Of a stretch of DNA of 64,000 nt, positions 2,809 through 47,757 are shown one piece after another (within the stretch, counting starts at the first letter, position 1; each line of letters starts with the position of its first letter). Made by a program: the position numbers and the translations under genes. Origin of the DNA: Gammaproteobacteria bacterium (GTDB lineage Bacteria > Pseudomonadota > Gammaproteobacteria > BMS3Bbin11). The notes under the pieces were generated by a model. That model searched no databases and was not told the DNA's origin. It saw only the letters and a list, made by a program, of their open reading frames with translations. The stretch covers positions 30,575-94,574 of the forward strand of contig JAADJE010000001.1 in assembly GCA_013150915.1 (NCBI GenBank), given 5' to 3'.

Positions 2809-3027
2809 TCAATAATGTGGCGGCAGCTCAGCTGCCCCACCTTCAGCACCTCGTGATTCACAGATATTTTCGACGAGTTCTCTTAGCCGTACGATCTCCC
2901 TCTTCATCACCTCAATCTCAGATTGCTGTCTGACAACAGTTAGATTGACAGCGTCAAGGCTGTCCTCCTGAAATGCCAGCCTGGCCTGAAGATCGATAAT
3001 TATTTCCTGTTTTTTTTGTTCTTCCAT
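2809..3027 (-). CDS. slyX: SlyX family protein
   Basis: 72-aa coiled-coil protein with RLAFQEDSLDAVN core and the characteristic C-terminal PPHY. Confidence 0.8.
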   Translation of the reverse strand: MEEQKKQEIIIDLQARLAFQEDSLDAVNLTVVRQQSEIEVMKREIVRLRELVENICESRGAEGGAAELPPHY

Positions 3028-3149: not shown

Positions 3150-3515
3150 CTATTTTCCAAAATCAAGAAACGGCATTACCGAGACATACAGTACAAAACC
3201 GAGAATTATAAGATAGCCGATGAATCGTACAGGATTTTCAAGAATTCTTTCGAAAATACCCATCTGCTCACCTTTTTGCTGACTTTCGGCAAATTCATCC
3301 TGGATCCGCTGGCGACGCTGTTGCTGGTAGGCATTCAGTAAGGCATGTGCCTGCCGGAGCTGGTCTTCATCATTGAGCCATATAGCTCCTGCCGAGATGA
3401 ACCAGTTACCCGGAGGTGTCACATAATATGAGATAGTATGCGTGTCAAACAATACACAGATGTCTTCCCGCTCATCATCCGGTACGCCGCGCAGCGACAT
3501 TAATCGAATAGCCAT
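3150..3515 (-). CDS. Small conserved hypothetical protein with a C-terminal transmembrane helix
   Basis: 121-aa ORF, co-directional with and 60 nt downstream of the anti-sigma gene. Hydrophobic tail FIGYLIILGFVLYVSVMPFL. No family recognised with certainty. Confidence 0.55.
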   Translation of the reverse strand: MAIRLMSLRGVPDDEREDICVLFDTHTISYYVTPPGNWFISAGAIWLNDEDQLRQAHALLNAYQQQRRQRIQDEFAESQQKGEQMGIFERILENPVRFIGYLIILGFVLYVSVMPFLDFGK

Positions 3516-3575
3516 GGTGCGATCAGTATAGCTGTTCTATCCCTTTGCAGAACACAGAAAACCAAAAACTGACCT

Positions 3576-4316
3576 CTAAACCTTGATATACACCCACCCC
3601 TGTTTCAGGCGAGTTATGATCTGCTCCAGCGCAGAGGGGGCTATTTCTGCTTCCGGGATCAGTTTCACCTTAATCCCCTTGTCTTCCAGTCGTTTGATAG
3701 CACGACTGCAGGCAAGAATTGAGAAATTATCATATTCTTTAGAAAGCCTTTTGATCCGATCCGCGTAAACAGTCTTATCCACCCTGATCAAATTCAGCCC
3801 CCCACCATTGGTGATAATTTCCAGTTCAAATGGGTACCCACCGGTAGCCGCAGCAAGCAGCAGGTCTTCAGCCGAGTCCAGGGCAGCAGTCAATCTGTCT
3901 GGTTCTGCAGAATCTACATGCAGTATAACTCTCTTCTCTTCTGCCTCTAGAGGCAGGCTGGCTATCACCTTGTCAGAGAGTAACTGCTGCTCGCCTCCCC
4001 GTACAAGGCTTACATCTATCCTGTCATGTGCAAACCAGCCAACAGCGGTGCCAACTGTCAGTAACAGTGTGGCAGCTACGGCCATGGCCGCGTACTGTTT
4101 GCCAAATTTCTGGCGCGATCTTACCTGTCTACTGGATGGTGGGACATTGTAAGCAAACCGTGTCAGTTCCTTTGTACTGCGTAATTCACAAAGCCGCTTC
4201 GCCAGTGCTGTATCAGCCTCCAGTGCAGCCATAATTTCACCACGTTCATCGCTATCCAGTTCATTGTCCAAATAGGCGTTCAAAAGCTCGTTTGATATGT
4301 CATTTGTATTTGTCAT
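3576..4316 (-). CDS. Putative membrane anti-sigma factor with a periplasmic DsrE-like (COG1416-type) C-terminal domain
   Basis: N-terminal anti-sigma-like segment (LNAYLDNELDSDERGEI), then a single TM (AAMAVAATLLLTVGTAVGWFA, ~res 75-96). Residues ~128-246 align with the DsrE-like protein at 5244-5702 (RVILHVD / ILACSRAI / GWVYIKV versus KIVLQIS / FAACKNTI / GYILIKP). ATGA start/stop overlap with the sigma gene. Confidence 0.7.
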   Translation of the reverse strand: MTNTNDISNELLNAYLDNELDSDERGEIMAALEADTALAKRLCELRSTKELTRFAYNVPPSSRQVRSRQKFGKQYAAMAVAATLLLTVGTAVGWFAHDRIDVSLVRGGEQQLLSDKVIASLPLEAEEKRVILHVDSAEPDRLTAALDSAEDLLLAAATGGYPFELEIITNGGGLNLIRVDKTVYADRIKRLSKEYDNFSILACSRAIKRLEDKGIKVKLIPEAEIAPSALEQIITRLKQGWVYIKV

Positions 4317-4882
4317 TTTACCCTCCTGAGCCTGCCCTCAGTCTTTCCATGGGATTGATTGAGCTCGCCAAGACTGGAGCGCAATGTTTGTCTGGCTCTG
4401 CATAAACGGCTCATTACCGTTCCAATTGGAATTTCCAATGCCTCGCTGACCTCGTTGTACGTCAATTCTGCCAGGTCAACCAGCGTGACTACCTGGCGTT
4501 GTTTTTCAGGTAGTTCCGTAATGGCCTGTCTGATGCGGAGAACAATCTGACTCTCGTGATGATGCTCTTCCGGTGACCGGTCACCGATTAATTCTGTATC
4601 GTCGATATCGACGGTCTCCCTCTGCGCGCGCAGGTGATCCTTCCAGCAATTGGACAGTATCCTGAACAACCAGGCATCCAGCATCTCCCGATCGCGCAAA
4701 CTGGTAATATTTTGCAGTGCCTTGATCAATGCCTGCTGGGTCAGATCGTCAGCCAGGTGGCTATCACGGCACCAGGACCATGCGACACGATACAAGCGGT
4801 CTCTGCGGCTCTCCAGCTCTGTATCAACTTCCTTTTGTTTTAATAGTCGTTTAATCAGTTTCATCTTTGCCATCGGGATCAT
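4313..4882 (-). CDS. ECF-type RNA polymerase sigma-70 family factor
   Basis: Region 2 (DDLTQQALIKAL..WLFRILSNCWKDHLR) and region 4 (LPEKQRQVVTLVDLAELTYNEVSEALEIPIGTVMSRLCRAR). The start may be one of the in-frame ATGs at 4873 or 4864. Confidence 0.9.
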   Translation of the reverse strand: MIPMAKMKLIKRLLKQKEVDTELESRRDRLYRVAWSWCRDSHLADDLTQQALIKALQNITSLRDREMLDAWLFRILSNCWKDHLRAQRETVDIDDTELIGDRSPEEHHHESQIVLRIRQAITELPEKQRQVVTLVDLAELTYNEVSEALEIPIGTVMSRLCRARQTLRSSLGELNQSHGKTEGRLRRVK

Positions 4883-4895
4883 TCCTGCACGTAGC

Positions 4896-4925
4896 TTTAG
4901 ACGTTTAAACGTCGCGTTCTATTCC
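4896..4925 (-). promoter_or_regulatory. Candidate autoregulatory ECF promoter (GGAAT-N17-CGTCT)
   Basis: The minus strand reads AAAATGGAATA-gaacgcgacgtttaaa-CGTCTAA. The -10 element ends ~18 nt upstream of the sigma ORF start. Confidence 0.45.
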
Positions 4926-4982
4926 ATTTTCCCTTTAAAGGTACCTTAATTTGTAAAAAAGTCACTTTTTGTTGCTAAAAAT

Positions 4983-5007
4983 GGAATAAATACTCTGTTT
5001 CCCCGTC
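4983..5007 (+). promoter_or_regulatory. Candidate ECF-dependent promoter facing the DsrE-like/porin genes (GGAAT-N16-CGTCT)
   Basis: The plus strand reads AAAATGGAATA-aatactctgtttccc-CGTCTTA. It shares the 11-nt AAAATGGAATA and the CGTCTwA box with the divergent motif 57 bp away. Confidence 0.45.
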
Positions 5008-5243
5008 TTAATTCTGTAACAACCATGTGGGAAGTCTGTAATTGTATTACTTTCTTCACGGTAATTGGGTAACACTGCATCACTATTATAAGGCCAAATG
5101 TTGTGATATTGCCCTATTAACTCCTGAGTTGCTGTGATTCAGCTATCACGTATAACTGAATATAAAATAATTACAATATCAACATTTCAACTTCTGCGTA
5201 TCGATATTTAATTGATACAAGGATCAATAGAGGATACAAAACT

Positions 5244-5702
5244 ATGTATAAATTATTAGGTAAAAGGGCATTGGTGCTACTCGCTATGTTGTCCTTCGGC
5301 CTGGCCTCGGTTGGACACGCTGCCGAGATCAAGACCGACAAGCCATTTGCCACAAAAAAAATCGTATTGCAAATTTCTGACCCAAACCCTTTCAAACAAA
5401 CACTGGTGCTCAATGTCGCCAGCAATCTTCTCAAGGCTTATGGCTCTGAGAATATTGATATTGAAATTGTTGCCTTTGGGCCTGGTTTGCGCCTGCTATT
5501 TGCTGAAAATGTTAACAAGGGGCGCATTGCGACACTCTCCAGTGAGGGTGTCAGATTTGCTGCGTGTAAGAACACAATCCGGGGCATGGGTAAAAAACTG
5601 GGCCATCCGCCAGCAATAAACCCCACTGCAGTTAAGGTTAGTGCGGGTGTAAGCCGCATTATGGATCTGGTTGATGCCGGTTACATACTGATAAAGCCAT
5701 AG
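5244..5702 (+). CDS. Secreted DsrE/DsrF-like family protein (COG1416-type)
   Basis: Signal peptide (LVLLAMLSFGLASVGHA|AE), then KKIVLQIS..IEIVAFGPGL..GVRFAACKNT..AGYILIKP. This is the typical small DsrE-like fold signature with the conserved Cys. Confidence 0.75.
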   Translation: MYKLLGKRALVLLAMLSFGLASVGHAAEIKTDKPFATKKIVLQISDPNPFKQTLVLNVASNLLKAYGSENIDIEIVAFGPGLRLLFAENVNKGRIATLSSEGVRFAACKNTIRGMGKKLGHPPAINPTAVKVSAGVSRIMDLVDAGYILIKP

Positions 5703-5726
5703 CACCTTCAAGGGAGAAACAAAAAA

Positions 5727-7067
5727 ATGAAATTACTCAAAAAAGCAATCATAACTGCCGCCCTTGCGGGTGGTATGCTGGCCGTCGGCCAGGCACAGGC
5801 AGCCAACTGGCTGATGCTACAGGGGACAGAAAAGCCCGGTCAGGCTGCACGCGCCAAGGTCTGGGGTTTCGTACAGGTTCAGTACCAGAATGATAATTCT
5901 GATGCCAATAAAGCCGGGGGTTATATCCCCCCCAAACTGACCCCCCCAAACCTGTCATCTCAGTCAGCCTTTAACGTTAACCGTGCCCGTATCGGCGCGC
6001 GTGGTACTGGCATGCCACTGGACAGCAATGTTAACTACTTCGTGCTGGTTGAATTTGGCAATAACGGTATCACCGAACCAGGTGGGTCCTTCGCAAAGTT
6101 GACGGATGCCAGCATCACCCTTAATCACATTCCCGGTGCACGCATTCGTACTGGTCTGTTTAAATATCCGGGTGCCGAAGAAGGCCTGCAGGCAATTCAC
6201 GTCTTTGACTGGGTGAACTTTACCGATGTATCTAACCAGATGTTGCTGGAACGCTTTCCGAATCAGTCATACACCCCAAATATTCCACCACAGTCTATTC
6301 CAACAGGAACAGACCTGCAGGGATTTGATGATGGTGTTGGTGCCTTTCGTGATGTCGGCATACAGGTCTTTGATTCCTTCATGGTTGGTGCAGCCAAAGA
6401 CTGGGACCTGAGCTATGCATTGATGGTTGGTAATGGAAACGGCCTCAACTTCTCGGACAACAATAGCAAAAAAGATATCTATGCCTATTTTTCTGCAGAA
6501 AAAGTGTTTAAAGGCAAAGGCCCTTTCCGTGAAGGCATGAAGTTCCTCGGCTGGTCACAGACTGGCGTGCGTAGCTATGATGGCAATAACGACGGGGTTA
6601 GTGAGAACTATGATCGTGATCGCTGGGGTATTGGTTTTAAATTAAAGAAATCCAACTATCGTGTAACGACTGAATACATGTCAGGTGATGGCATGATCAT
6701 GGTCGGTGTCGCCAATCCAAGCTTTGGCATGGGTCCAGGTGCTGGCAAACCAGGTAAGCCAGGCAACGGCCTGCTCGCTGAAGCGGATGGCTGGTACCTG
6801 GAGGGCGGCTATCGCATTCCCAAGTCAAACTGGGAACTCGACCTACGCTATGACACCTATGATCGACTCAAGGGTGACAAGTTTGAAGTTGAGTTTAAAA
6901 CCTGGACTGTAGGCGCTCAGTATTTCTTCAACAAGAAGACACGCGTGACAGCTAACTATGCCTCTCGCAACTATGAAGCCATCAACTTCCCATCTGGCAA
7001 AGGTCCTAATGCCCAGTTGGATGGTGTAAACGGTCGTGCTTCAATACAGTTGACTCATATCTTCTAA
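5727..7067 (+). CDS. Outer-membrane porin (beta-barrel)
   Basis: Signal peptide ending AQA|AN, alternating beta-strand pattern, aromatic girdles, C-terminal ..IQLTHIF with terminal Phe. It lies 24 nt downstream of the DsrE-like gene. Confidence 0.75.
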   Translation: MKLLKKAIITAALAGGMLAVGQAQAANWLMLQGTEKPGQAARAKVWGFVQVQYQNDNSDANKAGGYIPPKLTPPNLSSQSAFNVNRARIGARGTGMPLDSNVNYFVLVEFGNNGITEPGGSFAKLTDASITLNHIPGARIRTGLFKYPGAEEGLQAIHVFDWVNFTDVSNQMLLERFPNQSYTPNIPPQSIPTGTDLQGFDDGVGAFRDVGIQVFDSFMVGAAKDWDLSYALMVGNGNGLNFSDNNSKKDIYAYFSAEKVFKGKGPFREGMKFLGWSQTGVRSYDGNNDGVSENYDRDRWGIGFKLKKSNYRVTTEYMSGDGMIMVGVANPSFGMGPGAGKPGKPGNGLLAEADGWYLEGGYRIPKSNWELDLRYDTYDRLKGDKFEVEFKTWTVGAQYFFNKKTRVTANYASRNYEAINFPSGKGPNAQLDGVNGRASIQLTHIF

Positions 7068-7108
7068 GTCAGCAACCGTCATGATTTGATCACTCAAATC
7101 TGTCGTAT

Positions 7109-7138
7109 AAAAAACCCGGCTCATGGCCGGGTTTTTTT
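7109..7138 (+). terminator. Rho-independent terminator after the porin gene
   Basis: AAAAACCCGGC-tcat-GCCGGGTTTTTTT. GC stem followed by a T-run. Confidence 0.75.
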
Positions 7139-7214
7139 ATTTGCTTTGGCATTACGTTTTAAGATTTATGTGTTTCGTAAACATGAAATCCAAAAAGATA
7201 TCTCTCGCAGGGGG

Positions 7215-7294
7215 CGCAGAGAACGCAGGGAGGTCAAAATCTTTATTTTTTGTACAGCAGCGTTGATCCTTTTGGGTTCCCTGCGTTCTCTGCG
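7215..7294. repeat. Perfect 17-bp inverted repeat (REP-like) between convergent genes
   Basis: CGCAGAGAACGCAGGGA (7215-7231) and TCCCTGCGTTCTCTGCG (7278-7294) with a 46-nt loop. A related half-site TTCTCTGCGAACCTCTGCGCCCCTG is at ~3092-3118. Confidence 0.6.
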
Positions 7295-7339
7295 GACTCT
7301 GCAAGAGAAGGGTGTTTCTGTTGAACGTAAAACTTTCTT

Positions 7340-8425
7340 TTATCCCTTAGCCCTTGCCTCAAGATAAGCCTGCTCAGAAATCTTGTGCCAACTGATGACT
7401 TTATCGCGATAAGGTTTGAATGACTGATATACCTTTGCTGAAAAAGGATCCCTGTCAGCCAGTTCTTCGACAACCTGATCAGACAATTTTTTTAATTCCG
7501 ATAAAACATCATCCGGGAATTTTCTCAGATCTACCTTATGTTTATTGACCAGTGTCTGTAATGCATCATTATTCCGTGTGGTGTACTCAGCCAGCATGTC
7601 CTGGTTTGCCACACGACAGGCATTCATTACAATCACCTGCAAGTCAGCTGGCAGGCTCTTCAATGCCTTCTTGTTGATAATGGCCTCAAGTGTTGTGCCA
7701 GGCTCGTGCCAGCCAGGGTAGTAGTAATATTTTGCTGCCTTATAAAAACCGAAGGCCAGATCATTATATGGCCCGACCCATTCTGTTGCATCGATAGTGC
7801 CCGACTGCAGGGCTGTAAATAATTCACCGCCCGGCAGGTTCACCGGTGTTCCTCCGGCCCTCTTTAATACCTCTCCACCCAGCCCAGGGATGCGCATCTT
7901 GAGGCCTTTTAAATCGCTAACGCTGTTGATTTCCTTATTGAACCAGCCACCCATCTGCACGCCGGTATTGCCTGTCGCAGCAGGAACCAGACCAAACTGA
8001 TCATACAGTTCTGTCCACAACTCCATGCCACCACCATGATAAAGCCATCCATTCATTTCCTGTGCCGTCAAGCCAAAAGGAACGGCAGAAAAAAACTGTG
8101 TTGCCTCACTTTTTCCTTTCCAGTAATAGGCACCGCTATGGCCCATTTCTGCGGTACCCTCATAAACGGCATCGAAGACTTCCAGTGCAGGCACCAGTTC
8201 CTTTGCGCCATAAACCTTGACCTTCAAGCGGCCACCACTCATCTCACCAATTAATTTTGCCAGAAAATTGGCGCCCGTTCCCAGTCCGGGAAAATTCTTG
8301 GGCCAGGATGTGACCATCTTCCACTGGATCGTTGAACCCGCATGAACAGCTGGCGCGGCTAGCACCGTACTACCCAGTGCGGCACCCGCCAGGCTGGATG
8401 TCTTTATAAAATCACGTCTTTTCAT
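7340..8425 (-). CDS. TRAP transporter substrate-binding protein (DctP-type) with a Tat-like signal
   Basis: MKRRDFIKTSSLAGAALGSTVLAAPAVHA twin-arginine leader. The ~330-aa mature domain is typical of TRAP solute receptors. No dctQ/dctM lies adjacent. Confidence 0.8.
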   Translation of the reverse strand: MKRRDFIKTSSLAGAALGSTVLAAPAVHAGSTIQWKMVTSWPKNFPGLGTGANFLAKLIGEMSGGRLKVKVYGAKELVPALEVFDAVYEGTAEMGHSGAYYWKGKSEATQFFSAVPFGLTAQEMNGWLYHGGGMELWTELYDQFGLVPAATGNTGVQMGGWFNKEINSVSDLKGLKMRIPGLGGEVLKRAGGTPVNLPGGELFTALQSGTIDATEWVGPYNDLAFGFYKAAKYYYYPGWHEPGTTLEAIINKKALKSLPADLQVIVMNACRVANQDMLAEYTTRNNDALQTLVNKHKVDLRKFPDDVLSELKKLSDQVVEELADRDPFSAKVYQSFKPYRDKVISWHKISEQAYLEARAKG

Positions 8426-8600: not shown

Positions 8601-9371
8601 TTAGGGCTTAATACAGATGCTATTTTTCTCTTTTTCGGACTGGGCGACAGCCAACTCAACCCTATCCAGAAAACTTTGCAGGTCTTCACCACGATGGAAT
8701 TCTGTCATACCTATCCATACAGAGACCCTATGAGTGGTATTAGTCATGCCTTTTTCAAGATTCTCACGCAGCCTGTCTGCGACAATAGTGGCACCGGCTA
8801 TATCGGATTCGGGAAGCAGCGCCATAAACATGTTGTCTCTAAAACGCCCAATACGATCCGGCATTCTCAGGGATTCTGTCATTAAGCCCGCCGTGTTGAT
8901 CATTACATCTCCTGCATCCGTTTCTTCCAGGCTGTCAATACCATCAATCTTAATCAACCCTATGGAAAGCTTATGCCCATAGCGATCTGCCAGGGCCATT
9001 AGCTCAAGTATGCTAATAGTAAGGCCACGTTCGTTTGATGTTCGCGTAAGGGGATCAATATTGGGCCATTGCTTGAGTTCATCTTCTTTAACATCTTCCT
9101 CAATATTTTCAGGATCAAGCTCATCCCCTACAGATTCCACCGCCTCCTGGGATCCATTTTTTCGTCCAAAGATAAAAAAGATGCCTGCCGCAACTAACAA
9201 CAAACGCAGAATACTTTTCACCAGGTCTTCTATATTGGCGTCCATACCTACCAGCAGTCCATATAGATATATAACTAATTCTGCGACAATTACTATCAGC
9301 AATATTTTGATAATAAATGCGAGCAGACAACTACCATTTTTATTCTTTTTTCTGCAGATTAAATCAATCAT
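8601..9371 (-). CDS. Membrane protein with a degenerate GGDEF domain
   Basis: Two N-terminal TM helices and an acidic linker. The GGDEF fold begins DPLTRTSNERG, but the active-site GG(D/E)EF is replaced by FRDNMF. ATG at 9371 is chosen because the longer ORF would overlap the uvrD 3' end. Confidence 0.65.
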   Translation of the reverse strand: MIDLICRKKNKNGSCLLAFIIKILLIVIVAELVIYLYGLLVGMDANIEDLVKSILRLLLVAAGIFFIFGRKNGSQEAVESVGDELDPENIEEDVKEDELKQWPNIDPLTRTSNERGLTISILELMALADRYGHKLSIGLIKIDGIDSLEETDAGDVMINTAGLMTESLRMPDRIGRFRDNMFMALLPESDIAGATIVADRLRENLEKGMTNTTHRVSVWIGMTEFHRGEDLQSFLDRVELAVAQSEKEKNSICIKP

Positions 9372-9382
9372 TTTACTCCCCC

Positions 9383-11533
9383 TCATAAACGAGTTAGTCG
9401 GGCAAAAGACAGAACCAGCCATTTAACCCCGGCTGACTCAAAATTTACCTGTGCGCGTGTATGCTCTCCCTTTCCTTCTATATTCATGACAACCCCTTCA
9501 CCGAATTTATCATGCCTTACCCTCGTGCCCAGTGAGAAGCCAGTAGCTAACGGATCCACATCCTGTGCGCGCCAGGTTGACTGGAAGCCGCCACCACGCG
9601 TCCTGATCTCCTTTAATGCCTCTGCGGGTATCTCTTTCAGAAACCGTGAAGGTGATGTGTAATTTTCACGTCCATACAATCTTCGCACTTCGGCGTAGCT
9701 AATATAAAGTTGTTTCATGGCGCGTGTCATTCCAACATAGCAAAGCCTGCGCTCTTCTTCCAGACGTGTGGGATCATTTAGCGCATGCTGAGAAGGAAAC
9801 AGGCCTTCTTCCATGCCGGAAAGAAAAACCATCGGAAATTCCAGCCCTTTTGCAGCATGTAGACTCATCAACTGCACACAATCTTCCCATGCCTCTGCCT
9901 GACCTTCTCCAGCTTCCAGTGCCGCATGCGCAAGAAAGGCTGACAACGGATCCATTTCCACTTCTTCGTCCCGGTAATAGTTTCTCGCAGCGGTCACCAG
10001 CTCTTTCAGGTTTTCAACACGAGTCTCGGCCTTTTCACCCTTCGCATTACCATGAAACTCAAGTAACCCTGACTGAGCCAGCACCTGTTCTACCTGCTCA
10101 TGCAACACCAGACCCATCATCTGTGCCGAGAGTACATCAATCATTTCAAGAAACACGCGTAAGGCATTACTGGCACGTGCAGTAAGTAGATCCTCCTGCA
10201 GCAGTGAGGTGGCTGCCTGCCACATCGTTATGCCGGATGTTCTGGCCTTTTGCCTGACAATATCCAGCGTACGGTTACCGATACCCCGGGTCGGCACATT
10301 AACGATGCGCTCAAAAGAGGTATCATCCTCATGATTTAGACATAGGCGTAAATAGGACAATGCATCCTTTATTTCCGATCGCTCAAAAAAACGCGGGCCG
10401 CCATAAACACGATAGGGAACCGCCGCATTGAACAGGGCCTCTTCAAAACTACGGCTCTGGGCGTTGGAGCGATAGAGGATGGCAACCTCGGAACGTAAAT
10501 TTCCCTCATTAACCCATACCCGTATGCAGTCGACCGTAAAACGTGCTTCATCGACTTCATTGAAGGCGGCATAAAGCTTGATCTTTTCACCCTCTTCACC
10601 GTCCGTCCAGAGGGTCTTGCCCATTCGGGCTTCATTCCGGCTGATCACGGCATTGGCCGCATTCAGGATAGTCGAGGTCGAGCGATAATTCTGCTCGAGG
10701 CGCACCATCTCGGTTCCACGAAAATCCTTTTCAAACTTCCGGATATTCTCAACCTGTGCACCACGCCAGCTGTAGATCGACTGGTCATCATCACCAACCA
10801 CCATAATATGGGACTGTGACCCAACAAATTCTTTTAACCAGCGATACTGTATGCTATTGGTGTCCTGAAATTCATCCACCAACACAGCACGAAAACGTTC
10901 ACGGTACTGAAGACGTAACACTTCATTGTTGTGCATCATCTCCCATGTGCGTAATAACAGTTCGGCAAAATCTACCAACCCTGACCGCTGACAATGCACT
11001 TCATATTCCCTGTACACCTTCACCCATTGCTGCTGCTGGGGATCCGGCCCAACATGCACATCGGCGGCCCGCCGTCCTGCCTCCTTTTGATGATTTATGA
11101 AATACTGCCCCTGTTTGGGCTGCCAGTATGAATCATCCAGTTCCATGTTTTTTATGACACGCTTGACTACGCGCAGTTGATCATCGCTGTCAATAATTTG
11201 AAAATTTTGCGGCAGCCCAGCCTCCCGCCAGTGACTACGAAGCATTCTGTGAGACAGGCCATGGAAGGTACCCATCCACATGCCACCCACTGGAAAACCC
11301 AGCATCTGCTCGATTCGACCACGCATTTCACTGGCCGCTTTGTTGGTGAAAGTAACGGCCAGTATTGATAAAGGTGAGTAAGAATAGGCCTGTACCAGCC
11401 AGGCCACACGGTGTGTCAGCACACGTGTCTTACCACTACCTGCCCCGGCAAGTACCAGTAATGGCCCTTCTTCTGCAGCAACGGCCTTGCGTTGCGGTTC
11501 ATTCAGTCCATCGAGTAAGTGTGATACATCCAT
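9383..11533 (-). CDS. uvrD: DNA helicase II (UvrD)
   Basis: 716 aa. LNEPQRKAV..AGAGSGKTRVLTHRVAWL Walker A, the SF1 motifs throughout, and the UvrD-type C-terminal domain (GTRVRHDKFGEGVV). Confidence 0.9.
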   Translation of the reverse strand: MDVSHLLDGLNEPQRKAVAAEEGPLLVLAGAGSGKTRVLTHRVAWLVQAYSYSPLSILAVTFTNKAASEMRGRIEQMLGFPVGGMWMGTFHGLSHRMLRSHWREAGLPQNFQIIDSDDQLRVVKRVIKNMELDDSYWQPKQGQYFINHQKEAGRRAADVHVGPDPQQQQWVKVYREYEVHCQRSGLVDFAELLLRTWEMMHNNEVLRLQYRERFRAVLVDEFQDTNSIQYRWLKEFVGSQSHIMVVGDDDQSIYSWRGAQVENIRKFEKDFRGTEMVRLEQNYRSTSTILNAANAVISRNEARMGKTLWTDGEEGEKIKLYAAFNEVDEARFTVDCIRVWVNEGNLRSEVAILYRSNAQSRSFEEALFNAAVPYRVYGGPRFFERSEIKDALSYLRLCLNHEDDTSFERIVNVPTRGIGNRTLDIVRQKARTSGITMWQAATSLLQEDLLTARASNALRVFLEMIDVLSAQMMGLVLHEQVEQVLAQSGLLEFHGNAKGEKAETRVENLKELVTAARNYYRDEEVEMDPLSAFLAHAALEAGEGQAEAWEDCVQLMSLHAAKGLEFPMVFLSGMEEGLFPSQHALNDPTRLEEERRLCYVGMTRAMKQLYISYAEVRRLYGRENYTSPSRFLKEIPAEALKEIRTRGGGFQSTWRAQDVDPLATGFSLGTRVRHDKFGEGVVMNIEGKGEHTRAQVNFESAGVKWLVLSFARLTRL

Positions 11534-47163: not shown

Positions 47164-47757
47164 TCAGAAGCCCCCTAACCTCTCACGAATGGCTTCGTCT
47201 AACTCACCGGCCAACAGGGCATCGGTAAAGGACGCAAGACTCTTGAAATCTATTACCTCGTCAGGCGAAAGTGGGCTATCTTTCTTCATTAGCATCTTTT
47301 GTGTCCATCTGCCTTTTCCTGTGTTAACCAGCACGGGCAGGGCACCAATATCCCGTGCTGCCTGTAAATCACGCATGGAGTCTCCCACCGCCGGCACGCC
47401 GCTCATTTCTATTTTCAGCCTGGCGGCGACATCCCGAAACATCCCCGTTGCTGGCTTGCGGCAATTACAATTGTCTTCAGGCGCATGCGGGCAAAAGAAG
47501 ACCGCCTCAATCAGACCCCCTTTATCTCTGGTTTCATCCAACATGCGCCGATGAATTTTATTCAGTGTTGCAAGGCTAAGCAGACCCCGCGCAATGCCCG
47601 ACTGGTTGGTTAACACCACGACACGATAATCATGACGATGCAGCAGGGCTATCGCCTCCAGTGAACCCGGGATTGGCACCCATTCATCCACGGATTTGAT
47701 GAAATCATCGGAATCCTGGTTAATGACGCCGTCTCGGTCGAGAAGAATAGTTTTCAT
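47164..47757 (-). CDS. gmhB: D-glycero-beta-D-manno-heptose 1,7-bisphosphate 7-phosphatase (HAD-IIIA)
   Basis: LDRDGVIN, LTNQSGIARG, zinc-loop CPH..C.CRKP, VGDS. Confidence 0.88.
   Translation of the reverse strand: MKTILLDRDGVINQDSDDFIKSVDEWVPIPGSLEAIALLHRHDYRVVVLTNQSGIARGLLSLATLNKIHRRMLDETRDKGGLIEAVFFCPHAPEDNCNCRKPATGMFRDVAARLKIEMSGVPAVGDSMRDLQAARDIGALPVLVNTGKGRWTQKMLMKKDSPLSPDEVIDFKSLASFTDALLAGELDEAIRERLGGF

Follow-up and report, generated by a model that had tools for sequence, protein, structure and literature searches.

Group 4 extracytoplasmic function (ECF) sigma factors such as RpoE and SigW contain only regions 2 and 4, and each is paired with an anti-sigma factor (RseA or RsiW) encoded by a coupled downstream gene, which has an N-terminal domain, one transmembrane (TM) helix and an extracytoplasmic sensor; the pair is expressed from an autoregulatory ECF promoter with an AA(C/T) core at -35 and a CGT core at -10. 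A locus resembling these systems in all these respects lies in the 64-kb stretch of gammaproteobacterial DNA analysed here (the window; contig JAADJE010000001.1), whose open reading frames (ORFs) were listed and whose proteins were scored against Pfam and NCBIfam. The locus encodes an ECF sigma factor, an anti-sigma factor whose extracytoplasmic domain has a predicted DsrE fold, and, divergently, a secreted free DsrE-like protein and an outer-membrane porin. Comparison of its sequences and gene order with those of related loci indicates that the system is an uncharacterised, widespread ECF switch in the RseA/RsiW style with a new sensor domain. We propose, with a probability of roughly 0.6, that the cassette would sense reduced sulfur in the periplasm and set free an autoregulated ECF sigma factor in response; what we infer here is the signal and the manner of release.

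Several features set this locus apart from RpoE/RseA and SigW/RsiW. The extracytoplasmic domain is of the DsrE fold, the TM helix is unusually conserved and carries a GxxxG motif, and release by regulated proteolysis would here be an assumption. Unlike the RpoE/RseA system, this one includes no RseB-like gene, but its predicted regulon takes in a secreted protein paralogous to the sensor domain. DsrE proteins have been treated as a cytoplasmic sulfur-trafficking family. Its members DsrEFH and TusBCD form heterohexamers in the cytoplasm, from which persulfide sulfur goes on to DsrC or TusE; they share with the present proteins the superfamily fold and a single critical Cys at what the motif suggests is an equivalent strand-to-helix position, whereas the domains here would be periplasmic and regulatory. 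Neither the ORF list nor Pfam revealed DsrF/H or TusB/C partner genes at the locus, and the similarity to DsrEFH and TusBCD is at the superfamily level only. MTH1491 (PDB 1L1S) and ST0148 (2PD2) have in common with our proteins a beta-alpha-beta core, a Cys after a beta-strand (FCACSNT, as against ILACSRA and FAACKNT here) and a C-terminal GW-x-Y-I-K/R strand. These two are archaeal, cytoplasmic and stand-alone, whereas the proteins of our locus are proteobacterial, one copy being secreted and the other fused to an anti-sigma factor. We found no assigned function for the MTH1491-type branch of DsrE proteins.

The regulation of periplasmic sulfur oxidation in chemolithotrophic Beta- and Gammaproteobacteria is poorly understood. 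The sox regulators known to us are SoxR in Alphaproteobacteria, an ArsR-type sox repressor (Paracoccus, Pseudaminobacter), and TspS/TspR (TspSR) in Acidithiobacillus, a sigma54-dependent two-component system (Acidithiobacillus caldus). They resemble the system proposed here in controlling sox thiosulfate-oxidation genes on reduced sulfur, but the signalling principle differs wholly. The nearest functional analogue is the ECF26 system of Sinorhizobium meliloti, where RpoE1 and RpoE4 are sulfite-responsive, with an autoregulated promoter and an adjacent sulfur-oxidation operon (sorT) (PMC3511301). There too an ECF sigma/anti-sigma pair is tied to sulfur-oxidation genes, but the anti-sigma factor is of the COG5662 type, the host is alphaproteobacterial and the targets are sulfite oxidase genes, whereas here the anti-sigma factor is DsrE-like and the predicted targets are DsrE and porin genes or sox genes (PMC3511301). 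Neither a DsrE-like anti-sigma sensor nor an ECF-based sox regulator was found described in the literature, and a DsrE sensor domain goes unmentioned in the main text of either the paper that reclassified ECF sigma factors or its companion on anti-sigma factors.

The sigma factor and its DsrE-bearing anti-sigma factor

The sigma factor gene (4313-4882, minus strand; 189 amino acids (aa) as the longest ORF) gives Pfam matches to Sigma70_r2 (E 2e-14, 53 bits) and Sigma70_r4_2 (E 5e-16, 59 bits), regions r1 and r3 being absent in the same scan, and scores 98.4 bits against the NCBIfam model TIGR02937 (sigma70-ECF), whose cut-off is 42.9. It reached no NCBIfam equivalog cut-off, the top model being PRK12511 (109 versus 185 bits); its nearest solved relatives are SigH, SigE, SigW, AlgU and RpoE. 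Translation probably starts at Met4 (4873) or Met7 (4864), not at 4882, because the -10 element of the promoter described below lies at 4899-4903. The stop codon of the sigma gene and the start codon of the anti-sigma gene (3576-4316, minus strand; 246 aa) overlap in the tetranucleotide ATGA, with an AGGAGG Shine-Dalgarno sequence upstream. An earlier note on this DNA, made from its letters and ORFs, had described this overlap and read the two genes as an ECF sigma factor with its cognate anti-sigma factor; all ORFs are present where it placed them. We scanned gene neighbourhoods in one genome per GTDB species and analysed the best 80 of 225 carrier genomes; the sigma gene precedes the anti-sigma gene in all 80 loci (numbered L001 and upward). 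Domain matches, overlap and gene order thus together support the assignment of the pair as an ECF sigma factor and its cognate single-pass anti-sigma factor.

The AlphaFold model of the anti-sigma factor shows, in order, N-terminal helices, a TM helix (residues 73-96), a disordered linker (approximately 97-127) and an alpha/beta domain (128-245). The N-terminal domain (residues 1-55; 4152-4316, minus strand), with three to four helices predicted at a pLDDT of approximately 80, appears to be a class I-like, non-zinc anti-sigma domain. It scores 19.0 bits against Pfam zf-HC2, under the cut-off of 22.2, and 20 of the 26 homologues in our anti-sigma alignment (A1) match that family at E<=0.01 (best 9e-6); the N-terminal domains of RseA and MucA are weak profile matches to the anti-sigma family (E 0.68). 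In contrast to the zinc anti-sigma factors, the HxxxCxxC motif is absent from the domain throughout the 26-homologue alignment; C43 (87%) is its sole conserved Cys, and it has no conserved His. Among 283 unique family members aligned to a profile, D17 is conserved in 100%, and N13, L20 and R41 are also conserved.

The TM helix (4029-4100, minus strand) presents a conserved face of small residues, AA...GxxxGW. G90 (96%), G94 (99%) and W95 (96%) in profile numbering correspond to G89, G93 and W94 of the window protein, and GxxxG occurs in the TM helix of 269 of the 283 unique members, while the linker that follows varies in sequence and length across the family. Such a face would be unusual for a passive anchor, and its conservation suggests specific packing, either in oligomerisation or in recognition by a partner or a protease. 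Since binding of the sigma factor requires the N-terminal domain to be in the cytoplasm, the C-terminal domain is assigned to the periplasm.

The earlier note had called this C-terminal domain (residues 128-246; 3579-3935, minus strand) DsrE-like and had aligned it with the small secreted protein encoded at 5244-5702 (plus strand, 152 aa), proposing profile searches and structure prediction for both. These place the two domains together. By BLASTP they are 25% identical (E 2e-4), and hhalign of A1 against an alignment of 29 free DsrE homologues (A2) gave a probability of 97.2% (E 3.5e-11) over residues 128-245 and 36-151, pairing precisely the four sequence blocks that the note had listed. MTH1491 is the top match of both family profiles (E 4e-12 for the free family and 5e-10 for the anti-sigma family), and ST0148 is matched as well. 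The model of the free protein (pLDDT 88.7) superposes on 1L1S with a Foldseek E of 2.8e-9, a target-normalised TM-score of 0.92 and a root-mean-square deviation (RMSD) of 1.5 A; the anti-sigma model has the same top structural matches, with a target-normalised TM-score of 0.73 on 1L1S. Further Foldseek matches were 2QS7, 3PNX and 3MC3, annotated DsrE/DsrF proteins among them, and DsrEFH (2HY5). By profile and predicted structure, then, both domains are of the MTH1491/COG1416-type DsrE fold. The note's phrase 'a free copy of the same domain' holds insofar as the two are homologous; their divergence marks them as ancient paralogues and not as a recent copy.

Conservation within the sensor domain centres on one cysteine, as had been claimed from the single pair of sequences. 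Cys203 (codon 3708-3710, minus strand), W241 and Y243 are invariant in all 283 unique anti-sigma members, and N170, G173 and A202 are each conserved in at least 96%; Cys108 of the free protein (codon 5565-5567, plus strand) is invariant in 29 of 29 sequences in A2. In DsrE/TusD-type proteins a Cys at the strand-to-helix position carries persulfide, and from the motif, not from an alignment, Cys203 appears to occupy that position. It does align with Cys108 of the free paralogue and with Cys72 of MTH1491 ('FCACSNT'). MTH1491 is a homotrimer for which Cys70 and Cys72 are listed as endogenous cysteines (PMC5495134).

A promoter motif shared with the divergent DsrE-porin operon

The two transcription units run back to back from matching ECF-type promoters, which the earlier note had picked out in this one sequence and which our comparison finds conserved. 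That of the sigma/anti-sigma operon lies at 4899-4925 on the minus strand (GGAATAGA-N-CGTCT, with -10 at 4899-4903), and that of the DsrE-porin operon at 4983-5008 on the plus strand (GGAATAAA-N-CGTCT). A search of the window for GGAAT-N16/17-CGTCT returned three matches where 0.36 were expected. The third (47710-47734, plus strand) is probably due to chance: it lacks the extended GGAATA(A/T)(A/T), an ORF on the opposite, minus strand (47164-47757) encloses it, and no plus-strand gene follows it. Over 77 related loci, GGAAT-N15-17-CGTC was found in the sigma direction in 72 (versus 0.8% of shuffles) and in the divergent direction in 61 (versus 0.65%), against a background of 0.008 per equivalent length elsewhere in the loci, and the consensus is GGAATA(A/T)(A/T)-N-CGTC. 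In the Thiolapillus-like locus L010 (6880-6975) both promoters keep GGAATA(A/T)(A/T) and share a -10 of GCATC in place of CGTC, a co-variation that could help to map the specificity of sigma region 2. Because of this co-variation and the footprinting across 77 loci, common control of both operons by this sigma factor is very likely; the comparative evidence for predicted autoregulation and control of the divergent operon is strong. The motif also stands before a second dsrE-porin operon in L071, a further link between it and this sigma factor.

Another such link is found in L007 (6940-7441), from the sulfur-oxidising Gigantopelta aegis endosymbiont. There the motif lies 37 nt ahead of the start codon of a free DsrE gene that has no adjacent sigma gene; a 328-aa ORF stands where the porin would be, in a region rich in insertion sequence (IS) elements, and in this symbiont the module seems to have been scattered or to have decayed.

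Further copies of the motif occur near some modules. A GGAATA...CGTC copy precedes a CutA1-family gene in four gammaproteobacterial loci (L014, 8382; L015, 8808; L051, 8563; L084, 8679; all plus strand), a few kb downstream of the module; the Pfam CutA1 match for the L015 gene has E 1e-38, and cutA-like genes are found near the module in eight loci in all. By its position behind the motif, this gene could be an additional regulon member. In E. coli dsbD follows cutA. A dsbD gene after the motif-preceded cutA-like gene could not be confirmed: no long ORF was listed after cutA in L015, where an ORF running off the end of the locus would escape listing. In L019 (6415, minus strand) and L021 (6086, minus strand) the gene behind a motif copy was recognised by eye as that of a PEGA-like lipoprotein.

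The divergent operon of the window is as the earlier note had described it: a free paralogue with a signal peptide, followed by a porin. In the DsrE-like protein, which has at least 2984 homologues, a Sec signal peptide was seen by eye at approximately residues 1-26, and the model has an N-terminal helix at residues 3-21. The porin gene (5727-7067, plus strand; 446 aa) starts 24 nt downstream. Its product exceeds the Pfam cut-offs for both Porin_4 (34.6 versus 27 bits) and Porin_O_P (33.0 versus 20.9 bits) and has a signal-like N-terminus by eye; no sequence relative of it was found in the PDB. A Porin_O_P-type channel would be expected to admit anions. The leader from the ECF promoter to the DsrE start codon (5009-5243) is AT-rich and, at approximately 230 nt, unusually long; leader length varies widely among related loci. 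We considered a riboswitch or other structured leader at this position and rejected it (no Rfam match; folding z -0.26).

Gene neighbourhoods and a candidate sulfur signal

The fused anti-sigma(DsrE) family is large. An exhaustive profile search, counted as representatives of 50%-identity clusters, found 1944 at a threshold of E<=1e-3, of which 487 passed E<=1e-30, and the best 150 of these 487 are all full-length (221-277 aa); a word-indexed search returned 51 homologues, all of approximately 246 aa. Relatives were found in 225 species genomes. Public annotations of such proteins read 'hypothetical', 'DsrE/DsrF-like family protein' or 'zf-HC2 domain-containing protein'. In 74 loci the upstream sequence was long enough to judge the partner; once three artefacts of ORF boundaries had been corrected, 53 of these showed a divergent free DsrE gene and 27 showed DsrE plus porin. 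The four-gene cassette (porin and DsrE in one direction, sigma and anti-sigma in the other) recurs where the anti-sigma factor is 60%, 54%, 44% and 39% identical to that of the window, with different flanking genes at the cassettes of 44% and 39%; it was also recovered starting from distant free-DsrE homologues, including one on a Thiolapillus-like contig. The survey, which the earlier note had suggested, finds the co-occurrence it had in mind and shows its description of the circuit as 'self-contained' to be too narrow: the sigma/anti-sigma core is invariant, while DsrE and porin are only one of several alternative outputs.

Some neighbourhoods depart from the simple arrangement. Tandem duplicated modules occur in L057 (4432-5735 and 7827-9244), L065 (4450-5750 and 6104-7404) and L078 (2846-4152 and 4447-5732); in the latter two the DsrE gene behind the second module shares its strand and is not divergent. 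Tandem modules suggest paralogous circuits with different outputs in one genome. In L006 (122-1351) the homologue P0044 (409 aa) is called as a single sigma plus anti-sigma fusion ORF, followed by a PEGA/SHOCT-like gene; the fusion could be genuine, or it could have arisen from a frameshift or an assembly error where the two genes meet at ATGA.

The frequency of the free DsrE gene bears on a reading in which the sensor domain would not itself detect a small molecule. The anti-sigma DsrE domain would instead be a docking surface for the secreted paralogue, which would have an RseB-like role; mixed oligomers would set the stability of the anti-sigma factor, the state of the switch would depend on how far the free protein is loaded with sulfur, and, since the regulon itself supplies this protein, there would be feedback. 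DsrE-fold proteins oligomerise. The MTH1491 homotrimer (PMC5495134) fits this reading, as do the TM GxxxG, which suggests oligomerisation of the anti-sigma factor, the standing of free DsrE as the commonest divergent target (53 of 74 loci), and the retention by both proteins of the same Cys and of the C-terminal GW/Y-x-Y/L-I-K strand. Yet 21 of the 74 loci have no adjacent free DsrE gene, L091 and L020 have sox or yeeE genes in the partner position, and at approximately 25% identity a mixed oligomer of the two domains is not assured. We consider such partner titration unlikely, if still worth keeping in mind.

The preferred reading, sensing of reduced sulfur, draws on the identity of the carriers and of the genes that take the partner position. 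The best 80 carriers are all Pseudomonadota, and those with names include Sulfuricella, Sulfuriferula, Sulfuritalea, Sulfurimicrobium, Sulfurirhabdus, Thiobacillaceae, Gallionellaceae and Thiohalobacter, and also Thiogranum, Thiohalophilus, Thiohalomonas, Acidiferrobacteraceae, Thiotrichales, Chromatiales and Arenicellales. Almost all of these named taxa are recognised sulfur oxidisers of the Gamma- and Betaproteobacteria. In L091 the motif-bearing divergent promoter is followed by soxY (whose product ends in GGCGG), soxZ, soxA and soxB, confirmed by Pfam. The divergent set of L020 comprises genes for a YeeE/YedE-type sulfur transporter (E 1.5e-60), soxYZ, a SoxA/TsdA cytochrome (E 8e-36) and soxB. 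In L056 and L082 soxYZAB starts 30-50 nt after the anti-sigma stop codon, and L056 has two tandem DsrE genes on the divergent side; sox genes lie downstream of the module in L069 and L085, and L086 has a DsrE-YeeE operon. Judged from these arrangements, the variable partner seems to stay sulfur-related, be it DsrE plus porin, tandem DsrE, yeeE-soxYZ-(soxA/tsdA)-soxB, or soxYZAB. With soxYZAB, yeeE or tandem DsrE genes under the module's apparent control, or beside it, in other genomes, the family gives the impression of a regulator dedicated to the acquisition and oxidation of sulfur compounds in the periplasm. The idea of a reactive-sulfur signal, which the earlier note had raised from the fold, is supported independently by this taxonomy and by the predicted sox and yeeE targets in the partner position.

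Two further lines were set aside. A TauE/SafE gene stands beside the DsrE gene in approximately 14-15 loci of the Sulfuritalea/Rhodocyclaceae type; we rejected TauE as a regulon member and treat it as weak neighbourhood evidence, because these loci form a single clade and in L041 the gene is convergent, not co-transcribed, with the DsrE gene. We also rejected a Thioalkalivibrio arsenite transcriptome (PMC6620896) as expression evidence, since its regulated porin adjoins a TonB-dependent receptor and its DsrE/F-like genes could not be tied to this anti-sigma family.

The loci in which soxYZAB follows the anti-sigma gene bear on a further reading. The membrane protein might be primarily a tethered sulfur carrier or enzyme of the periplasmic sulfur pathway, sigma binding being secondary and the occupancy of Cys203 during turnover reporting pathway load, not external substrate. 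The apparent co-transcription of the module with soxYZAB in L056 and L082 would suit such a role, and Cys203 and the loop residues H133, N170 and G173 are conserved as in an active site. Yet the gene is always translationally coupled to that of an ECF sigma factor and its product always has an anti-sigma domain; moreover, a regulator would be present in numbers that do not fit a carrier well, and the free paralogue is already available as one. We regard this possibility as highly improbable.

Another reading concerns the signal. The sensor might respond to a thiol-reactive or chalcogen species such as selenite, tellurite or arsenite, to a metal or to general envelope stress, the sulfur genes nearby reflecting no more than the lifestyle of the hosts. 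YeeE/YedE-family proteins have also been linked to selenium, the motif stands before a cutA-like gene in the four loci given above, and the window itself holds no sulfur-oxidation genes. The porin moreover has a match to the model of ExtI, a selenite/tellurite porin (NF040900; E 5e-5), but it scores 22.3 bits against a cut-off of 150 and covers the C-terminal 75 residues only, and we rejected the link as generic similarity of barrel strands. Against a signal of this kind stand the sox operons that lie behind the module promoter, or are apparently co-transcribed with the module, in several independent lineages, and the nearly uniform sulfur oxidation of the named taxa. A non-sulfur signal therefore seems improbable to us, more so than partner titration and less so than the tethered carrier.

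Reduced-sulfur sensing could work as follows. The autoregulated sigma factor would be held at the inner membrane by the single-pass anti-sigma factor, with Cys203 as the sensing residue. A periplasmic reduced sulfur species would modify this Cys, either directly or by transfer from a sulfur carrier; candidate ligands are the sulfane sulfur of polysulfide or persulfide, or a thiosulfonate formed from thiosulfate or tetrathionate. Modification would switch the sensor domain to another state, and the signal might pass through the GxxxG TM helix, or through exposure of the flexible linker to site-1/site-2 proteolysis, so that the sigma factor would be freed. The output is well supported: freed sigma would transcribe its own operon and the divergent one from the back-to-back GGAATA(A/T)(A/T)-N16-CGTC promoters. 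The porin and the free DsrE protein would plausibly let the sulfur compound into the periplasm and bind it there, and may feed back on the sensor.

Several observations weigh against this account. First, no sox, yeeE or tauE gene occurs in the 64-kb window, and 21 of the 74 loci have no adjacent DsrE gene, with some pairs orphaned beside unrelated genes. Second, the Pfam DsrE scores (PF02635) of the window proteins, 19.7 bits for the anti-sigma factor and 15.9 for the free protein, fall under the gathering threshold of 22.7; some relatives exceed it (28 and 34.8 bits in L023, the locus of Sulfuriferula sp. GW1, NZ_CP170197; 33 bits in L056), and 19 of the 26 anti-sigma and 15 of the 29 free members match at E<=0.01. 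Third, confidence in the anti-sigma model is moderate, with a mean pLDDT of 61.7 and approximately 75-80 in the sensor domain. Fourth, the chemistry is uncertain. Since thiosulfate does not react with a lone thiol of its own accord, the direct ligand is uncertain and is more likely to be polysulfide, tetrathionate or sulfur delivered by a carrier such as free DsrE or SoxYZ. In the literature we found no sulfur-transfer activity for MTH1491-type proteins. Finally, as to novelty, the sigma group may already be listed in the ECF Hub, with no functional study attached.

A bolder version of reduced-sulfur sensing, which we offer tentatively and think doubtful as it stands, is a Cys-to-Cys relay: substrate would enter through the porin, the secreted DsrE protein would take up sulfane sulfur or a thiosulfonate group from it, and this group would pass to the DsrE domain of the anti-sigma factor. 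If so, covalent sulfur transfer between paralogous carriers would be a counterpart of the phosphotransfer of two-component systems, and the relay would be a master switch for Sox-type sulfur oxidation and uptake in many beta- and gammaproteobacterial sulfur oxidisers.

Leaving the relay aside, this family, which at least 225 species genomes carry and which is physically linked to operons of soxYZAB, yeeE or DsrE/porin genes, is a candidate regulator of sulfur oxidation, and one that comes with a predicted promoter, a predicted regulon and one key residue, Cys203. It would place DsrE-fold domains in the periplasm, one of them in a presumptive sensory role, and would give the MTH1491/COG1416 branch, of known structure since 2002, its first functional context. 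For ECF signalling it would represent a new class of extracytoplasmic sensor, with a regulon that includes the sensor's own paralogue. The sigma factor, used together with its GGAATAAA-N16-CGTC promoter, might also offer synthetic biology an orthogonal switch, possibly one responsive to sulfur compounds.

Flanking genes and other features of the locus

Downstream of the porin gene a strong bidirectional intrinsic terminator (7109-7137; 13-bp stem with six GC pairs, flanked by A and T runs) closes both the DsrE-porin operon and the convergent DctP gene. Sub-threshold Rfam matches at 7040-7310 (Leu_leader, STnc370, RNAI and others) pile on this terminator; they look like artefacts of it, and we rejected RNA genes there.

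On the other side, the anti-sigma gene is followed after a 60-nt gap, in which no terminator was detected, by a gene for a small tail-anchored protein (3150-3515, minus strand) that the earlier note had tentatively added to the operon. We identify its product as a DUF6164 protein (Pfam E 2e-30). It is possibly co-transcribed with the anti-sigma gene here, and we reject it as a core component of the module, because among the more than 80 loci it adjoins the module only in L001, L012 and L013, the three closest; it is better regarded as a lineage-specific passenger.

The left flank of the module is a conserved housekeeping block: a spoT/relA-like gene (58-2244), RidA (2336-2731) and SlyX (2809-3027). 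To the right lie DctP (7340-8425), an ORF at 8601-9422 whose counterparts in the syntenic L001 and L002 encode GGDEF proteins, and UvrD (9383-11533). Flanking synteny is kept in L001 and L002 (54-60% identity) and not in more distant carriers, a pattern consistent with vertical inheritance of the module within this lineage.

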